From UHGV virus genome UHGV-0050054: DNA of 14,933 bases. One strand, given 5' to 3'. The position numbers and the translations under genes were made by a program. The notes beneath the pieces are model-generated. The model made no database searches. It saw nothing but the letters and a program-made list of their open reading frames with translations, and had not been told where the DNA came from. Positions 3,369-9,375 of this stretch are shown here, piece after piece. The stretch is from a virus. Position 1 is the first letter of the stretch, and each line of letters starts with the position of its first letter.

Positions 3369-3851
3369 TTATTTGATAAGAAGTGAAGGTTTCCCAACTT
3401 TGAGTTGAGCGCCGGGGATATTTATTCCTGCTTTTAGTTGGTGTTTGATTGCCAGTTTGTCGGCTTTAATTGTCGTTTCAAACTCAACGTATTCAGGAGG
3501 AAGGGCGCTTGAGTCGATTATTTCTACAATTTCTGACGGTTTGCGGATTGTTACCTGGTGAATACCTGCTCTAATCTTTTTCTTGCCTACCATTTCAAGC
3601 GATGACGCTATATACGCCATAATGCTGTCAATCTTATTTTGAATTACTGCGGCTCGCTCATTTAGTGACTTTGCCTCTTCCTTGAGGCGTTCAGCATAAC
3701 CAGTTTCATTTTTAATGACGGAAAGAAGTTGCTCTATTTTATCGGTAAATTCTCCTTCCATGCCTTCTATTGTGTCAGCAATCATCTCTGGTTCTAAATC
3801 TGAATCCATCAATTTTGCGTATTCATTGGCAATTTCATATAGTTTGCTCAC
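3369..3851 (-). CDS. Phage protein, siphovirus Gp157-like (tentative); GTG start at 3851
   Basis: Track ORF 3369..3857; GTG at 3851 has GGAGG 6 nt upstream. Size and position directly downstream of recT fit the Gp157 family that often accompanies RecT/Erf; family call from memory. Confidence 0.6.
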   Translation of the reverse strand: MSKLYEIANEYAKLMDSDLEPEMIADTIEGMEGEFTDKIEQLLSVIKNETGYAERLKEEAKSLNERAAVIQNKIDSIMAYIASSLEMVGKKKIRAGIHQVTIRKPSEIVEIIDSSALPPEYVEFETTIKADKLAIKHQLKAGINIPGAQLKVGKPSLLIK

Positions 3852-4746
3852 TGGCAACCTCCAGTTTCGCTTTGCATTCTGCGTAAATGGCTTGTACGTT
3901 CTGCTGCAATTTCATTCCAGATGTCAGGCGATATGCTTCTGCAAAATATCGCTTCAAATCATCCATGTTTTCAGCCTGAGCCATTTCATCACAAAGAAGT
4001 TGTGCTTTATCCGTTATTTCCTGCTGGCGTTTCCGTTCATCTTCGCGGATATCTTCCTCTGATTTGTGCGGCATAACTGGTTCAGTCCACACACCTTCTT
4101 CTTCGTTTAGTACGTGAATAGCACTATCAAGACGTGATGCCTTAGGCCAATACTTGCTTGCACGCTTTACGACCGTCTTTCGCGCCATCTCATTCCAGTG
4201 ATTTACCCATGGTCCTTTATCGCTGAATGCCGCCTTGCTTGTTTTCCTTACAGCCTCAATTTCAGCCAGACTCATCTCTTCCGTTAGATAATCACCTGCT
4301 GGCGTCTTAACTGTGCAGTAAACGCCAACGATATCACCACGATCACCGAAGGCGTTGTATTTATGGGTTGGTGCTTTATCAAGCCCGTTTGACTCATAGG
4401 TATCGTTAGCATGAACAAGTTTTGCCTGACCCCATGAGATAACACCAGACTCCATTGCAATATGGAGCAATCCCATATAACTGATATCAAGGCACACCAT
4501 GCCGTCGCGCGGAACCAGATAAGCCAGTTTGCTAGCCGGGTTTAAGGTGATGCCGATCGCCGCTACATTGATGATGGCGTTCTGTGCGCTGGTTGGATTT
4601 GCCAGTGCTGTTTTAGCCAGGTAATCGTTTTTCTGGAAATACTGAATTGCAAACTGGCTTTCCTTAGCCCATGTCACCGTCTGTTCAGTCAATGCTCCGC
4701 AGAATAACTGCTCTTGCTGTTTAACGAATTCAACGATATTGCTCAT
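3835..4746 (-). CDS. recT: RecT-family single-strand annealing recombinase
   Basis: 303-aa ORF with GPWVNHWNEMARKTVVKRASKYWP, matching the conserved RecT core as I recall it from Rac RecT (GPWVTHWEEMAKKTAIRR...). GGAG RBS; ATGA overlap with the upstream gene. Confidence 0.85.
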   Translation of the reverse strand: MSNIVEFVKQQEQLFCGALTEQTVTWAKESQFAIQYFQKNDYLAKTALANPTSAQNAIINVAAIGITLNPASKLAYLVPRDGMVCLDISYMGLLHIAMESGVISWGQAKLVHANDTYESNGLDKAPTHKYNAFGDRGDIVGVYCTVKTPAGDYLTEEMSLAEIEAVRKTSKAAFSDKGPWVNHWNEMARKTVVKRASKYWPKASRLDSAIHVLNEEEGVWTEPVMPHKSEEDIREDERKRQQEITDKAQLLCDEMAQAENMDDLKRYFAEAYRLTSGMKLQQNVQAIYAECKAKLEVASEQTI

Positions 4747-5135: not shown

Positions 5136-5288
5136 TCATTTCCTGCGATACCACGGAAGGTTGATAGCTGATTTCATCGCTTTATTTGCTTCAAGCCACA
5201 TTTTGGAATCACCAATAAATCTGGCTATTACTGCTTTGTTCTGTGCAGCACGAAGCATCTGGTGATTGATGGCTATTTCATTGCGCAT
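5136..5288 (-). CDS. kil: Kil-like host cell-division inhibitor peptide (50 aa)
   Basis: Not in track (under 60 aa). Manual translation MRNEIAINHQMLRAAQNKAVIARFIGDSKMWLEANKAMKSAINLPWYRRK; the IARFIGDSKMWLEA core resembles lambda Kil as I remember it. GAGG RBS 8 nt upstream; overlaps the cIII-like ORF as kil and cIII overlap in lambda. Confidence 0.55.
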   Translation of the reverse strand: MRNEIAINHQMLRAAQNKAVIARFIGDSKMWLEANKAMKSAINLPWYRRK

Positions 5289-5404
5289 AATAAGACCTCA
5301 ACTCTTTTCCATCCGTCACGTAATTTACGGGTGATTCGTTCAAGTAAAGATTCATTTAGTTGGAAGGCACCCATGCGAGCGCCTCCCGCGATTGCGTAAA
5401 TCAT
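5273..5404 (-). CDS. cIII: cIII-like regulator peptide (43 aa)
   Basis: Not in track. Manual translation MIYAIAGGARMGAFQLNESLLERITRKLRDGWKRVEVLLCAMK; the ESLLERITRKLRDGWKR core matches the lambda CIII central helix as recalled. AAGGA RBS. Confidence 0.6.
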   Translation of the reverse strand: MIYAIAGGARMGAFQLNESLLERITRKLRDGWKRVEVLLCAMK

Positions 5405-5427: not shown

Positions 5428-6396
5428 TTAGTAGGTTATTTTTGTTGCGAATACTTCGCCTTTTACGATGGCTGTTATGATATTTTTAGCAACATCTTCT
5501 GATGCACCAACCTTGATAAGGTCAGCAAGTATTTTGTTATTTACTTCTTTCCGGTGAGCTTTATCCTTTGCTCTACGCTCTTCTTCTTCCTTGATTCTTT
5601 TTTCTTCTGCTATTCTGGCTTGCTCTTTTGCTTCAGCCTCGCGACGGATTCGTTCAGCCTCCTCCTGTGCTTTTCTGCGTTCTGCTTCAATTGCTGCCTG
5701 CTTTTCTCTTTCAGCTCGTTCTGCTGCCTCTTTTGCTTCGCGCTGTGCTCGCTGCTCGGCTTCAATGCGTTCACGCTCTGCACGTTCCGCTGCGGCCTTA
5801 GCTTCTGCTTCTCGCCTTGCTGCTGCTTCAATTTCGGCTTTTGCCTTTGCTTCGGCTTCTGCTCTGGCTTTCTCTTCAGCTTCTCTTTTTAAGCGTTCTT
5901 CATGCTCTCGCTTTTCCTGCTCCGCTTTGAGTCTTGCCTCTTCTCTTTGGCGGTCAAATTCGCGATCCATCAAAATAGCTATTTCATGGTCAGACTCAAT
6001 TTGCTTTGCGAGAGCTTCAGCTGCTGCCTTAGCTTCTTCTTCGGCTTTAATCCGCGCCTGTTCTTCCTCATAATCAGTAAGAGGCTGGCGTGCCTTGGCT
6101 TTCAGCTCATCAAGGCGATAACGCACTGTCTTGCGGTTGGCATCAATTAGCTTTGGAATTTCCTTCAGTTCAGCAACAAGGTCTTTGCCAAGACCATCGA
6201 GATATGTTTTCGTCTGCGCAACTTTATACGCCAGAGAAGCGATCTCTTTTCTGCCCTTTGCCGTTGTGATATCAGGCACAAAGGACATAACTTCACGTTC
6301 AACCTTTTGGAGAATTTCTTCAATCTGGTCAGCAGACTGAAATACAATCATTGCATTTGCTTTTTCAATAACAACTAAATCTGTTACTTCACTCAT
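5428..6396 (-). CDS. Hypothetical protein (322 aa) with a long E/R/K/A-rich predicted single alpha-helix
   Basis: Track ORF 5428..6450; preferred start ATG 6396 with GGAGG 4 nt upstream. About 150 residues are runs such as EAEAKAKAEIEAAARREAEAKAAAERAERE; globular-looking N- and C-terminal parts. Confidence 0.65.
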   Translation of the reverse strand: MSEVTDLVVIEKANAMIVFQSADQIEEILQKVEREVMSFVPDITTAKGRKEIASLAYKVAQTKTYLDGLGKDLVAELKEIPKLIDANRKTVRYRLDELKAKARQPLTDYEEEQARIKAEEEAKAAAEALAKQIESDHEIAILMDREFDRQREEARLKAEQEKREHEERLKREAEEKARAEAEAKAKAEIEAAARREAEAKAAAERAERERIEAEQRAQREAKEAAERAEREKQAAIEAERRKAQEEAERIRREAEAKEQARIAEEKRIKEEEERRAKDKAHRKEVNNKILADLIKVGASEDVAKNIITAIVKGEVFATKITY

Positions 6397-6408
6397 ATAT
6401 CCTCCGTC

Positions 6409-6435
6409 AAAAAAATCGCCCTCACATTGGAGGGC
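6409..6435 (-). terminator. Intrinsic terminator-like hairpin just upstream of the 322-aa gene RBS
   Basis: Minus strand reads GCCCTC-caatgt-GAGGGC followed by GATTTTTTTGA (6-bp GC stem, 7-nt T run). Confidence 0.55.
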
Positions 6436-6530
6436 AAAGAAGATTTCCAATAATCAGAACAAGTCGGCTCCTGTTTAGTTATGAGCGACATTGCTCCGTG
6501 TATTCACTCGTTGGAATGAATACACAGTGC

Positions 6531-6743
6531 TTATTCGCGAGCTTTGAGCATGGCATCAGCAATAAAGTAGGCATCATCTGCTAATTCTTTGTACTGTGGT
6601 GAATTCTGTCCACCGCCAAAGGAATGTCCGTCCCATCTGCGCACTATTGCTGCCATAGCCTTAGCAGCGAAGTAATCACGTAATGTCGCATCACTTGCCA
6701 TTTCTGGGCGTTTGATATCTGCTTCATAAAACTCGCACATCAT
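6531..6743 (-). CDS. Hypothetical protein (70 aa)
   Basis: Complete ORF; ATGA overlap with the upstream gene; GGGAGGTGA upstream. Confidence 0.5.
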   Translation of the reverse strand: MMCEFYEADIKRPEMASDATLRDYFAAKAMAAIVRRWDGHSFGGGQNSPQYKELADDAYFIADAMLKARE

Positions 6744-7018
6744 TCACCTCCCAGAGCCTTGCTGATTGCTGCCTTGGCTCGTTTGTATTCGGTTAACTCT
6801 CTGCACCCTTCGTCATGCTCGTAAAGGAAGACAAGCTCTTGCAGTGCTTCAAGCAAATCAGGAGCTGCTGCTATCAGTAGCGCATCCTCCCTTTCATTTC
6901 TTGTTGCTGCTTCAATGTATGTGTCACCAATCGTCACACCATGGAACGTAGTCATCATCTCGTTGACGTTTCTAACCGTGTACTTCCATTTACCAGGCGT
7001 ACCCTTAAACTCTTTCAT
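6740..7018 (-). CDS. Hypothetical protein (92 aa from ATG 7018; track gives GTG 7024)
   Basis: AGAGGTGG RBS about 6 nt before ATG 7018. Contains IAAAPDLLEALQELV. Lies just downstream of hairpin-box copy 1. Confidence 0.55.
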   Translation of the reverse strand: MKEFKGTPGKWKYTVRNVNEMMTTFHGVTIGDTYIEAATRNEREDALLIAAAPDLLEALQELVFLYEHDEGCRELTEYKRAKAAISKALGGE

Positions 7019-7026
7019 ATCCACCT

Positions 7027-7065
7027 CTGTTGTTTATGCCAAAAATAAAGGCCGACTATGCGGCC
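7027..7065 (-). terminator. Hairpin box copy 1, terminator-like on the minus strand
   Basis: Minus strand: GGCCG-catagt-CGGCC then TTTATTTTTGGCATAAACAACAG. Overlaps the stop of the 156-aa gene. Near-identical copy at 7570..7605. Confidence 0.5.
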
Positions 7066-7535
7066 TAGTAGAATACCCAATTTTCTGTTTCTTGGTTGTG
7101 TCCAAAGTTATATTCAATATCTGGTGTTGATGTATCAATATTCTTCATCCCATCAACAAGAGTTGATACAACAGCAAAATCTTGTTTGATTCTCATTAAA
7201 TGGTATTTCTTCCGGCGCAATAAACTCTCAATGGCAAGTTTCTTCGTTGGGAATGCAAAAGATCTTTCTGCATTTTTTGCTACTTTCTTAATTGCATATC
7301 TATTTCTCCTTTGTTTCCATTCCTGTAACCACTGATTTGGTGCTGGTTTAAAATCAACAATCCAATGCGCAGGAACCAACCATGCATAATGCTCTGTCTG
7401 ATGAAAAGCTATATATTGAAGTGCGAATATTTTGATTCCATCTTCTTCAACTGTCGCCTGGAATCTCCAGAAAACAGGCATTCCATCATGTTCAGTTTCT
7501 GATTCAGGAAAAGGTACGCTCCATGATTTTGTCAT
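7065..7535 (-). CDS. Hypothetical protein (156 aa) encoded in a low-GC cassette
   Basis: Complete ORF with GAGGTGAGAT RBS; visibly AT-richer than neighbours; basic central region (KQRRNRYAIKKVAKNAERSF...LLRRKKYHLMRIKQ). No family recognised. Confidence 0.6.
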   Translation of the reverse strand: MTKSWSVPFPESETEHDGMPVFWRFQATVEEDGIKIFALQYIAFHQTEHYAWLVPAHWIVDFKPAPNQWLQEWKQRRNRYAIKKVAKNAERSFAFPTKKLAIESLLRRKKYHLMRIKQDFAVVSTLVDGMKNIDTSTPDIEYNFGHNQETENWVFY

Positions 7536-7569
7536 ATCTCACCTCAAATAATTCAGTGCAGTGTTTATT

Positions 7570-7605
7570 CTGTTGTTTATGCCAAAAGAAGGCCGACTAT
7601 GCGGC
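7570..7605 (-). repeat. Hairpin box copy 2 (slightly degraded copy of 7027..7065)
   Basis: CTGTTGTTTATGCCAAAAGAAGGCCGACTATGCGGC differs from copy 1 at 2-3 positions; 4-bp stem and a weaker T run. Lies between the Cys-rich ORF and the 156-aa ORF. Confidence 0.45.
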
Positions 7606-7615
7606 ATAATTATTT

Positions 7616-7804
7616 TTAACTATCATCAATACATGGCACTTTATTCCAGTCGATATCGTTTTTATTGTCGTCCCACATGTCTTTGTTTTTGTATTTCTCG
7701 CTACATCCTAGGCAAATGTTGTATGGCCTACCGATAAGGTTTAACGAAATACGTTGCATTTCATTTGATTCAAACATGTATCCACAGAACTGACATTTAT
7801 GCAT
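7616..7804 (-). CDS. Small Cys-rich protein (62 aa), putative zinc ribbon
   Basis: CxxC at residues 4-7 and 31-34; starts 4 nt after the N stop with GAGGGGTGAG upstream; low-GC like the adjacent 156-aa gene. Confidence 0.55.
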   Translation of the reverse strand: MHKCQFCGYMFESNEMQRISLNLIGRPYNICLGCSEKYKNKDMWDDNKNDIDWNKVPCIDDS

Positions 7805-7807
7805 ATC

Positions 7808-8140
7808 TCACCCCTCATACAGTAGCTTACTGCCTAATTTCATTTTCTGGCGACCAACACAAGTCACACCCATTTCACTGCGTGGCTTGCTGTACCATGT
7901 GCGCTGATTCTTGCGCTCAATACGTTGCAGGTTGCTTTCAATCTGTTCGTGGTATTCAGCCAGCACCGTAAGGTCTATCGGATTCAGTGCGCTTTCTACT
8001 CGTGATTTAGGCTTTCGAGTCAGCGAGAGAATTTTGCGGGTGTCTGGCTTTGCGCTTACCCCAACCAACAGGGGATTTGCTGCTTTCCATTGAGCCTGTT
8101 TCTCTGCGCGACGTTCGCGGCGGCGTGTTTGTGCATCCAT
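7808..8140 (-). CDS. N: Antitermination protein N
   Basis: 110-aa product MDAQTRRRERRAEKQAQWKAANPLLVGVSAKP... matches lambda N as recalled over most of its length, including the Arg-rich N-terminus; AGGAG RBS; nutL upstream. Confidence 0.9.
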   Translation of the reverse strand: MDAQTRRRERRAEKQAQWKAANPLLVGVSAKPDTRKILSLTRKPKSRVESALNPIDLTVLAEYHEQIESNLQRIERKNQRTWYSKPRSEMGVTCVGRQKMKLGSKLLYEG

Positions 8141-8165
8141 CTGGATTCTCCTGTCAGTTAGCTTT

Positions 8166-8385
8166 GGTGGTGTGGTGGCTGGTAGTCTAGCTCCAGCTTG
8201 TTGAGTCTCATTCGGAGGGGTATAACCGGCACCCCAGCGATTTTTCCATGCGACAACGTGCGCGTTATGGCGGCCTTATCGCCCGCGGCTCCCCATCTCG
8301 TCCACGCTATTGCTAGCGTTGGGAGCGCTTCACCGCTCAACAGTAGGTAAGCACTTGCCAGTGACTAGCTGGCTTCACCACACCC
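8166..8385 (-). promoter_or_regulatory. N-leader long-range inverted repeat enclosing a GC-rich core of about 170 nt
   Basis: Arms near 8167..8193 and 8360..8384 are complementary (perfect 9-bp GGTGTGGTG/CACCACACC core plus imperfect extension). Position matches the lambda N-leader hairpin region. Confidence 0.4.
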
Positions 8386-8408
8386 CAAAGCCTTCTGCTT
8401 TGAATGCT

Positions 8409-8439
8409 GCCCTTCTTCAGGGCTTAATTTTTAAGAGCA
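8409..8439 (-). promoter_or_regulatory. nutL: nutL (boxA + boxB)
   Basis: Minus strand reads GCTCTTAA-AAATTAA-GCCCTGAAGAAGGGC: boxB is the canonical lambda hairpin, boxA-like element 7 nt upstream. Confidence 0.85.
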
Positions 8440-8478
8440 TCACCTTCATGGTGGTTAGTGCGTCCTGCTGATGGCTAA

Positions 8479-8507
8479 ATAGTACGATTTGTACTTTATC
8501 GAGTCAA
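8479..8507 (-). promoter_or_regulatory. pL-like promoter with overlapping operator
   Basis: Minus strand TTGACT (8502..8507), 17-nt spacer, TACTAT (8479..8484); palindrome AGTAC-N5-GTACT (8481..8495) overlaps the spacer and -10. Confidence 0.6.
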
Positions 8508-8553
8508 TACAAAATGTTCTAAATATGGTTGGTTTTTTATAACGCTTTGTATT
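8481..8553. promoter_or_regulatory. Putative OL operators (two sites of form A[G/T][T/A]AC-N5-GTAyT)
   Basis: AGTACgatttGTACT at 8481..8495 and ATAACgctttGTATT at 8539..8553, 58 bp apart; the same motif family recurs at OR. Confidence 0.4.
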
Positions 8554-8569
8554 TAATTGGTTTATATTT

Positions 8570-8600
8570 TGGAAAAAGAAAACCCGACACTAAGGTCGGG
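8570..8600 (-). terminator. Intrinsic terminator downstream of cI
   Basis: Minus strand CCCGAC-cttagt-GTCGGG followed by TTTTCTTTTTCC, beginning 33 nt after the cI stop. Confidence 0.7.
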
Positions 8601-8632
8601 TTATTGTTGTGTGCTTTAGAGTGGTGAGGCTG

Positions 8633-9292
8633 TTAACTAAATGTCTCTTCAGGCCACTGGCTGGCGATAACTTTCCCTACTACGGAACAGCTATCATTGC
8701 ATGGAATCATTGGATATTGCTGGTTTAGTGGCTGTAGGAACACCTGACCGCTATCCCTGATCAGTTTCTTGAAGGTAAACTCGTCACCACCAAGTCTGGC
8801 TATGCAGAAATCACCTGGCTCAACAGCCTGCTCAGGGTCAACGAGAATTAACATCCCGTCAGGAAAGCTTGGCTTGGATCCTGTTGGCGCGGTCATGGAA
8901 TTACCTTCAACTTCAAGCCAGAACGCACAATCACTGGCTTTTTTGGTTGTGCTGACCCATCTCTCCGCATCACCTTTGGTAAAGGTTCTAAGCTCAGGCG
9001 AGAACATCCCGGCCTGAACATGAGAAAAAACAGGGTACTCATATTGTTTTTTAACGGGGGCAGATGAGTATTCGCCAACAGGTGAAAATGTACCGTCGTG
9101 GTTGAATGAGACGTTATCAATACCAAGGTATTTAAACACCACACCAATCTCGTCAAGAGATGGATGACGAGATCCGCGCAACCAGTGACCAATTCCACCC
9201 TGCGTCATACCAAGCTCTTCAGCTAACTTCTCTTGAGTTATGCCGAGCTCTTTCATTCTGGATCTAGCCAGTTCATACCATTTCATTTTCAT
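8633..9292 (-). CDS. cI: CI-type prophage repressor (N-terminal HTH, C-terminal LexA/S24-like domain)
   Basis: C-terminal half ([38 protein letters not shown]...[28 protein letters not shown]...[11 protein letters not shown]) matches lambda CI as recalled, apart from a few substitutions; the N-terminal HTH differs from lambda. Track ORF begins at a TTG (9334); ATG 9292 or 9286 is more likely. Confidence 0.9.
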
Positions 9293-9301
9293 ACCCTTAT
9301 T

Positions 9302-9375
9302 ATTACGCTCTGTACTAAAACCATCCATGCACAAGATGTATTTTTTGTTTGCATTCTAAAAGTACATATCGTATT
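9302..9375. promoter_or_regulatory. Putative OR operators
   Basis: ATTACgctctGTACT at 9302..9316 and AGTACatatcGTATT at 9361..9375, 60 bp apart; the second overlaps the PR spacer and -10. Confidence 0.4.

Follow-up and report, generated by a model that had tools for sequence, protein, structure and literature searches.

A low-G+C segment downstream of N in a lambda-type prophage: probable shuffling of single-gene cassettes at terminator-like linker boxes

Introduction

In the viral genome UHGV-0050054, two small open reading frames (ORFs) of low G+C content follow the antiterminator gene N and are accompanied by two copies of a hairpin box. The question raised by this locus is whether the two genes form a new system acquired as a unit, or whether their association is a case of ordinary lambdoid mosaicism. 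The analysis covered a stretch of 14,933 nucleotides (nt), referred to below as the window, to which all positions apply; the segment of interest extends from 7027 to 7806 and its genes are located on the minus strand. A previous sequence-only reading had described this segment as a two-gene cassette bracketed by the boxes and as a candidate for an undescribed system. The answer obtained here is a different one. The segment is the section closest to N in the leftward early (pL) operon of a lambda-type prophage, and its arrangement corresponds to the usual mosaicism of lambdoid phages, i.e. cassette shuffling in a known hotspot with no new system involved; taken as a whole, we regard this explanation as probable. 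The features on which the argument is built are the following, in the order of transcription (lengths of genes and proteins are given in amino acids, aa).

7616..7804, minus strand: 62-aa acidic C4 zinc-ribbon protein (phrog_19863, same as mEp213_050)
7569..7608, minus strand: box A, weakened hairpin GCCG-CAUAGU-CGGC (-5.0 kcal/mol), U-run UUCUUUU and linker GGCATAAACAACAGA
7065..7535, minus strand: 156-aa protein, soluble, with a basic central segment, orthologue of HK97 gp45, 933W L0079 and phi24B vb_24B_11c
7026..7067, minus strand: box B, terminator-like hairpin AGGCCG-CAUAGU-CGGCCU (-9.6 kcal/mol) with UUAUUUUU

Results

Distribution of the two genes and gene arrangements

Analysis of 5426 complete Escherichia coli genomes reveals that the 156-aa gene is carried by 598 of them, with up to four copies per genome, and the 62-aa gene by six; the two are adjacent in one, that of ECONIH4. 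The records of the phage collection give the same picture, 80 containing the 156-aa gene only, four the 62-aa gene only and none both. Adjacency being limited to one complete genome, the 62-aa and 156-aa genes are therefore independent cassettes, and the idea of a two-gene cassette or system does not withstand this co-occurrence check. A co-functional pair acquired as a unit, be it an anti-defence, toxin-antitoxin-like or exclusion system, would be in line with the adjacency and similar AT-richness of the genes and with the recurrence of the 62-aa gene/box/156-aa gene junction in ECONIH4 and in the IMG/VR contig L066. These distributions, however, make such a pair very improbable, as do the terminator box placed between the two genes, the insertion of a third gene in contig L110 (see below) and the searches of PADLOC-DB v2, which returned nothing beyond chance (no match for the 62-aa protein and, for the 156-aa protein, a chance-level match alone, to Cas1_II with E 0.019 and 12 bits). 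Moreover, both ORFs are already catalogued (as HK97 gp45/L0079/vb_24B_11c and as mEp213_050, respectively), albeit with no function assigned, and the locus is not undescribed in the sense originally proposed.

Comparison of the arrangements found in related elements shows how the genes combine. In mEp213 the order is N, 62-aa gene, one box and the 94-aa gene that here follows box B, with the breakpoints inside the box; this phage lacks exactly the 543 base pairs (bp) carrying the 156-aa gene, in agreement with the earlier view of that gene as a discrete module. Bas106 has N, a different gene of 54 aa, the 156-aa gene, box B and the 94-aa gene. In the IMG/VR contig L110 the 62-aa and 156-aa genes are separated by a 149-aa membrane-protein gene, itself flanked by one box on either side. 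In the window the 156-aa gene is the second after N, not the first, and the box upstream of it lies between the 62-aa and 156-aa genes; the pair is therefore not bracketed as a unit, contrary to what had been announced for it.

Two further observations concern these relatives. mEp213 (JQ182733, L002) contains two different N genes, of the HK620 and HK244 types, in tandem left-operon segments (2359–2631 and 3784–4116); after each of them come small accessory genes and a copy of the terminator box, the second one lying at L002 1739–1753. In ECONIH4 (NZ_CP026399, L004 1226–2836) an IS1634-like transposase of the ISSpu7 family is found just downstream of the 156-aa gene, and the left operon of that prophage is therefore disrupted by the insertion.

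Structure and occurrence of the boxes

Boxes A (40 nt) and B (42 nt) are identical in 38 of 42 aligned columns, with a 2-nt indel, and have in common an exact 19-mer (0.01 expected by chance) as well as an exact 15-mer core. They do flank the 156-aa gene as near-identical copies, which the sequence-only reading had recognized; the length of 36 bp that it gave for them is too short. The stem of box B comprises 6 bp, five of them GC pairs, and is followed by UUAUUUUU; the 156-aa gene ends in a TAG stop codon that overlaps this stem. After the U-run, the 94-aa gene has its linker and ribosome-binding site. Box B passes the intrinsic-terminator scan, whereas box A, with its 4-bp stem, fails it and resembles a terminator weakly. 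The difference resides in a G-to-U change in the 5' arm and in a shorter U-run, the stem change being present in all 62-aa-linked copies examined.

In the box sequence the U-run is followed by GGCAUAAACAACAGA and then by the start region GAGGUG(A/G)(G)AU-AUG. This region, GAGGTG(A/G)(G)AT-ATG in the DNA, is nearly the same in three consecutive genes, those of 62, 156 and 94 aa. The shared start regions are located at 7795–7819, 7526–7550 and 7010–7030 (minus strand), linkers resembling them also follow other copies of the box, and the conserved start region may belong to the recombination substrate.

The contigs of IMG/VR were scanned for exact matches to the 15-nt core, which was recovered from at least 120 viral contigs. 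Ninety-three sampled copies with a U-run are preceded by at least 14 gene clusters and followed by at least 14, in many combinations. The box was not found in phage lambda, and Rfam gave no match to the boxes or hairpins, whether the whole window was scanned with gathering thresholds or 6300–8700 with E <= 1. Judged by their predicted hairpins and by this census, the boxes are intrinsic-terminator-like linkers common to many lambdoid phages at unrelated gene junctions. The suggestion that they mark this particular insertion has to be abandoned, given the at least 14 gene families on each side and the fact that HK97 and 933W have the 156-aa gene without a box. Isolated copies (41 nt, 97–100% identical) are also present in E. 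coli NZ_CP168987 and NZ_CM143887, under or beside genes annotated as 'Nmad5 family putative nucleotide modification protein'; the slot after N is thus not the only place where the box occurs.

The 156-aa gene might instead have been carried in by a small mobile element, with the boxes as a target-site duplication or as the terminal repeats of a transposition or homing event; this idea is suggested by the direct repeats that flank the gene exactly and by mEp213, which with its single box resembles an 'empty site'. On the other hand, the box is 40–42 nt long and borders at least 14 other gene families, and HK97, 933W and ECONIH4 have the gene with no box or one box. There is no associated transposase, integrase or homing endonuclease, and the repeats, in direct orientation and devoid of inverted ends, each consist of a terminator with a ribosome-site linker. 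Because of the promiscuous contexts of the box a transposon or homing origin was rejected, and we give it hardly any credence.

According to the explanation that we prefer, this section of the operon would have been assembled from single-gene accessory cassettes assorting independently among lambdoid phages. Since the box is shared by many of these phages at unrelated gene junctions, it would provide the short homology by which cassettes are swapped in and out. A crossover between the two boxes A and B would result in the precise loss of the 156-aa gene and would yield the mEp213 arrangement. Exchange of lambdoid modules through short conserved flanking sequences is an established idea, presented in PMC2327257 with a citation of Clark et al. 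2001.

Base composition and coding capacity

The G+C content of 7027–7806 is 36.5%, that is 2.6 standard deviations under the mean of all 780-bp intervals (46.3 +/- 3.7%), with 0.1% of these intervals equally low; the lowest value, 36.3%, belongs to the interval starting at 7066. Gene by gene, G+C amounts to 35.4% for the 62-aa gene and 36.5% for the 156-aa gene (28.7% at third codon positions, GC3), compared with 50.8% for N and 47.0% for the 94-aa gene. The segment is thus AT-richer than N and its early flanks, as the sequence-only reading had remarked. Both ORFs are real genes and not pseudo-ORFs, a possibility excluded by their end-to-end phrog matches and by conservation. Plus-strand ORFs in the segment matched no phage family, and alternative coding on that strand was ruled out on this ground. 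The position between N (7808–8140, N36 with E 3.8e-23) and cIII (5273–5404, phrog_550 with E 2e-20) was confirmed, and the assignment of the segment to the N-to-cIII accessory slot is thereby supported.

The 156-aa protein

The 156-aa protein matches phrog_1636 over its entire length (E 3.4e-111 over residues 1–156 of 156) and its gene shows 98.5% nucleotide identity to HK97 gene 45, 933W L0079 and phi24B vb_24B_11c; it is a member of the HK97 gp45/933W L0079 family (phrog_1636). Equivalent ORFs occur in H-19B, BP-4795, Min27 and many other Shiga toxin (Stx) phages (80 phage records), and orthologues of 55–84% identity in Pectobacterium, Cronobacter, Brenneria and Rosenbergiella. In HK97 and 933W, gp45 is directly followed by the hairpin-plus-terminator sequence that is found here at 6530–6416. 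The linker before gp45 in these two phages, GGCAGCAAACCACTTATTTGAGGTGAGATATG, partly corresponds to the 3' end of N.

In searches for a known function, Pfam and NCBIfam yielded chance-level matches only for both proteins of the segment, as did Pfam for 67 superfamily members of the 156-aa protein, and sequence-profile searches of the PDB with both families gave no match below E 0.1. Nothing relevant was found in the literature on the function of L0079, HK97 gp45, vb_24B_11c, WP_000167595 or phrog_1636. A profile search among 1.84 billion representatives identified 87 relatives, most of them 130–155 aa in length and 19–27% identical, belonging to PHROGs 13631, 25384 and 28215, all uncharacterised. 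Two long, repeat-rich profile matches, P0067 and P0090, were considered as domain fusions and rejected as low-complexity false positives.

An AlphaFold2 model built from a 67-sequence alignment reached a predicted local distance difference test (pLDDT) of 95.4 and a predicted template modelling score (pTM) of 0.82; it replaced a model from 22 close homologues (pLDDT 55), which was discarded. The retained model is made of three long antiparallel strands (residues 19–55), short helices, a strand at 83–86, a long helix at 98–130 and an ordered C-terminal tail. Foldseek found nothing below E = 1 in the PDB; against viral models it retrieved, at E <= 1e-3, 12 phage proteins, all of them uncharacterised, from phages of Erwinia, Achromobacter, Delftia, Rhizobium, Sinorhizobium, Tenacibaculum and Cellulophaga. 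Among them are proteins of Erwinia phiEa2809, Achromobacter phiAxp-3 and Delftia RG-2014; those from Achromobacter and Delftia belong to virulent phages of the N4-like group. Distant homologues are located in early operons of temperate elements, beside genes for a DNA methylase, RdgC and an integrase. Profile matches and the predicted fold together place the 156-aa protein in a broad, uncharacterised phage superfamily.

Residues 71–120 bear a net charge of +12 with acidic ends on either side, and several basic residues of this central segment are invariant in the close family. Neither protein of the segment has a transmembrane segment (maximum 19-residue Kyte-Doolittle value 0.56 for 156 aa and 0.41 for 62 aa). 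Because of the charge pattern, the lack of a membrane segment, the contexts of the homologues and the occurrence of the fold in other phages, it is quite conceivable, although we would stop short of calling it probable, that the 156-aa protein performs an early-lytic accessory function by binding nucleic acid or an acidic host protein.

The 62-aa protein

The 62-aa protein matches a sole phage family, phrog_19863, end to end (E 5.6e-47 over residues 1–62 of 62), and its gene is 100% identical in DNA to mEp213_050; it is a member of the mEp213_050 family (phrog_19863). Its cysteines, C4-x2-C7 ... C31-x2-C34, are all four invariant across eight clusters, and its tail is acidic. Comparison of the gene with two diverged homologues gave a proportion of synonymous differences (pS) of 0.90, which is saturated, and a proportion of nonsynonymous differences (pN) of 0.14–0.21, which points to purifying selection on the gene. 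The gene is rare (four phage records and 6/5426 complete E. coli genomes), and RefSeq/PGAP annotates it in none of the six genomes that carry it. Its ATG is situated 3 nt past the stop codon of N, with the Shine-Dalgarno sequence inside the last N codons, and in every context examined it adjoins an N-type gene; three N families are involved, and once the gene stands upstream of N.

These relations raise the idea that the 62-aa protein is a functional counterpart of lambda Ral, or that it modulates N or serves as its cofactor. In size and slot the 62-aa gene is close to ral, the gene found after N in Sf101 and HK544, its neighbourhood with N is constant through three N families, including the one upstream case, and it is translationally coupled to N. 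However, phrog_19863 is the only phage family matched and similarity to lambda Ral is lacking in sequence: BLASTP against lambda Ral produced no alignment at E <= 100, and no Ral-annotated family was matched in the PHROG search. A relationship with Ral was rejected at this level. Since 6/5426 genomes contain the gene, N does not need it, and the adjacency may just reflect the first slot of the operon. An analogue of Ral or a partner of N is thus considered unlikely; a protein-binding modulator is what the 62-aa protein would most likely be.

The remark that neither product has a counterpart in lambda was borne out by the blank BLASTP comparison with Ral and, for the 156-aa protein, by the absence of lambda from the tblastn matches listed. 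In the text supplements of the accessory-gene screen PMC12373910, none of four peptide fragments of the two proteins was present.

The surrounding early operon

The markers found in the window (N, cIII, Kil, RecT, a Mu-Gam-like protein and a repressor) identify it as the early region of a prophage of the lambda type. Transcription of the minus strand follows the order pL, nutL, N, 62-aa gene, box A, 156-aa gene, box B, 94-aa gene and 70-aa gene, continued by a long hairpin and strong terminator, a charged Sf6-gp33-like protein, cIII, kil, RecT and Gam. The features outside the segment are listed below.

8633–9334, minus strand: cI-type repressor gene (phrog_4)
8479..8507, minus strand: pL-like sigma-70 promoter, TTGACT-17-TACTAT (consensus scan)
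8409..8423, minus strand: nutL boxB hairpin, GCCCTGAAGAAGGGC on the transcribed strand (read from the sequence)
7808..8140, minus strand: antiterminator N, 110 aa, lambda N36 type (Pfam PF11438, E 3.8e-23; phrog_271)
6740..7018, minus strand: 92-aa gene from ATG 7018 (94 aa from GTG 7024), phrog_1273, next cassette downstream
6531..6743, minus strand: 70-aa gene overlapping the stop codon of the 94-aa gene (phrog_2201)
6493..6530, minus strand: long conserved hairpin, -20.2 kcal/mol (hairpin energy and comparison)
6416..6437, minus strand: strong intrinsic-terminator-like site, 8-bp stem, -12.9 kcal/mol, U7 (terminator scan)
5273–5404, minus strand: cIII (phrog_550, E 2e-20)

The pL-like site is placed between the cI-type repressor gene and nutL, a position that suggests its function as the pL promoter. 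The hairpin at 8409..8423 is presumably identical to the lambda nutL boxB. A terminator-scan match on the plus strand at 8409–8423 was discarded as a false positive for termination, because the minus strand reads as a lambda-type nutL boxB hairpin. The 94-aa gene has its counterparts in Bas106_0041 and mEp213_049.

The hairpin at 6493–6530 is near-perfect, 38 nt long and located about 55 nt upstream of the strong terminator; in HK97, 933W and ECONIH4 its sequence comes directly after the gp45 stop codon. It is possible that it serves as an RNA-processing site (e.g. for RNase III) or as a regulatory element of the pL transcript. The site at 6416–6437 matches the 'putative terminator' annotated after HK97 gene 45. 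It is overlapped by a mechanically derived ORF of 340 aa (TTG start) at 5428–6450 (minus strand); Bas106 and mEp213 annotate a 969-bp gene there, the start of which would be near 6396. The encoded protein is highly charged (70 K+R, 81 D+E, 0 Trp), its gene is the source of the strongest AT skew of the window (-0.74 at 5551–5850), and it belongs to the uncharacterised Sf6 gene 33 family (phrog_1376), labelled 'cell envelope biogenesis protein TolA' in RefSeq. Beyond cIII, Kil, a RecT-like annealing protein and a Mu-Gam-like protein are encoded.

Discussion

Expression and possible roles

A simple consensus scan of 6613–8478 revealed no minus-strand sigma-70-like promoter. With no promoter of their own, both genes would therefore be silent in the lysogen as long as pL is repressed. 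On induction the 62-aa gene would be expressed immediately with N, because it is translationally coupled to N and precedes the first terminator, while most expression of the 156-aa gene, which the weak box A precedes, would await read-through mediated by N. The genes further downstream, behind box B and the 6437–6416 site, would require N-modified polymerase for full expression, and it is on such polymerase that the expression of the delayed-early genes of lambda depends. In HK97 and 933W gp45 itself occupies the immediate-early position. Both proteins would act as non-essential accessory factors of the early lytic phase, in host takeover or counter-defence, and not in prophage-expressed exclusion.

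Expression from the prophage is what would be expected if one or both genes were morons, i.e. lysogenic-conversion genes for exclusion or defence similar to sieB or rexAB. Low G+C and a flanking terminator are classic moron traits, lambda has sieB in its N-cIII slot, and Stx prophages very commonly carry the 156-aa gene, of which a single genome may contain as many as four copies. In contrast, no promoter-like site was found by the consensus scan upstream of either gene and the 62-aa gene is translationally coupled to N; in HK97 and 933W, gp45 begins 8 nt after the N stop codon, which therefore leaves no room for a promoter there. Unlike SieB, which is a membrane protein, neither product has a membrane segment. 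PADLOC gave no matches beyond chance, and the fold of the 156-aa protein is encountered in many other phages, including N4-like phages, which are virulent. We thus consider the moron interpretation distinctly unlikely and retain the assembly of early-operon cassettes as the probable explanation.

Several points weigh against this explanation. Termination at the boxes and its dependence on N would follow from features of the sequence, and box A may not terminate at all owing to its weakened stem. The use of the box as the actual crossover site is suggested by the positions of the junctions. A consensus promoter scan could miss a weak or non-sigma-70 promoter, and for neither protein was an annotated homologue found that gives its function. 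Finally, the constant adjacency of the 62-aa gene and N could mean a functional link with N.

The locus is of interest in several respects. The gene right after N in HK97, 933W, H-19B and phi24B is among the first to be expressed on induction of Shiga-toxin prophages, and the HK97 gp45 family, which defines a phage-wide superfamily, now has a confident structural model and no solved relative. A zinc-ribbon gene beside N has been overlooked by RefSeq in six of six complete genomes carrying it. The terminator-linker box, moreover, offers a clean and countable case of a short conserved junction exchanging early-operon cassettes, useful for studying the movement of accessory and anti-defence cargo between prophages.

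Comparison with known systems

The closest relatives of the 156-aa gene are those of HK97 (gp45), 933W (L0079), phi24B and H-19B, with which it shares 98–99% protein identity over the full length and the same operon and orientation downstream of N. In HK97 and 933W, gp45 starts 8 nt past the N stop codon with no box on either side, whereas here the 62-aa gene and box A separate N from the 156-aa gene, and box B and two more genes come after the latter. In mEp213 the 62-aa gene (mEp213_050) likewise begins 3 nt after N and is followed by the same box; there, however, the 94-aa gene comes immediately after the box, and the 156-aa gene, present here, is missing.

With lambda, the segment shares the N-cIII slot of the non-essential early genes of the nin/ea type, as well as terminators after N of the tL1 type and the logic of an N-antiterminated pL operon. 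It differs from lambda in that there is no sequence similarity to ral, sieB or ea10 and in that lambda is devoid of the box. Morons have in common with it a low G+C content (here 36.5% vs. 46.3%), the single-gene unit and the 3' terminator, represented by box B. Their definition fails on the promoter, none of which was found, the genes being embedded in and coupled to the pL operon with their starts coupled to the preceding gene or linker. Exclusion of the SieB/Rex type differs in its own promoter, for which the scan gave no equivalent, and in its membrane character.

The boxes themselves are best compared with the linkers of the kind reported by Clark et al. 2001, as cited in PMC2327257. Like them, they are conserved intergenic sequences of about 40 nt that occur in many phages at junctions of unrelated genes. 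The box found here differs in being itself a terminator hairpin combined with a translation-start linker.

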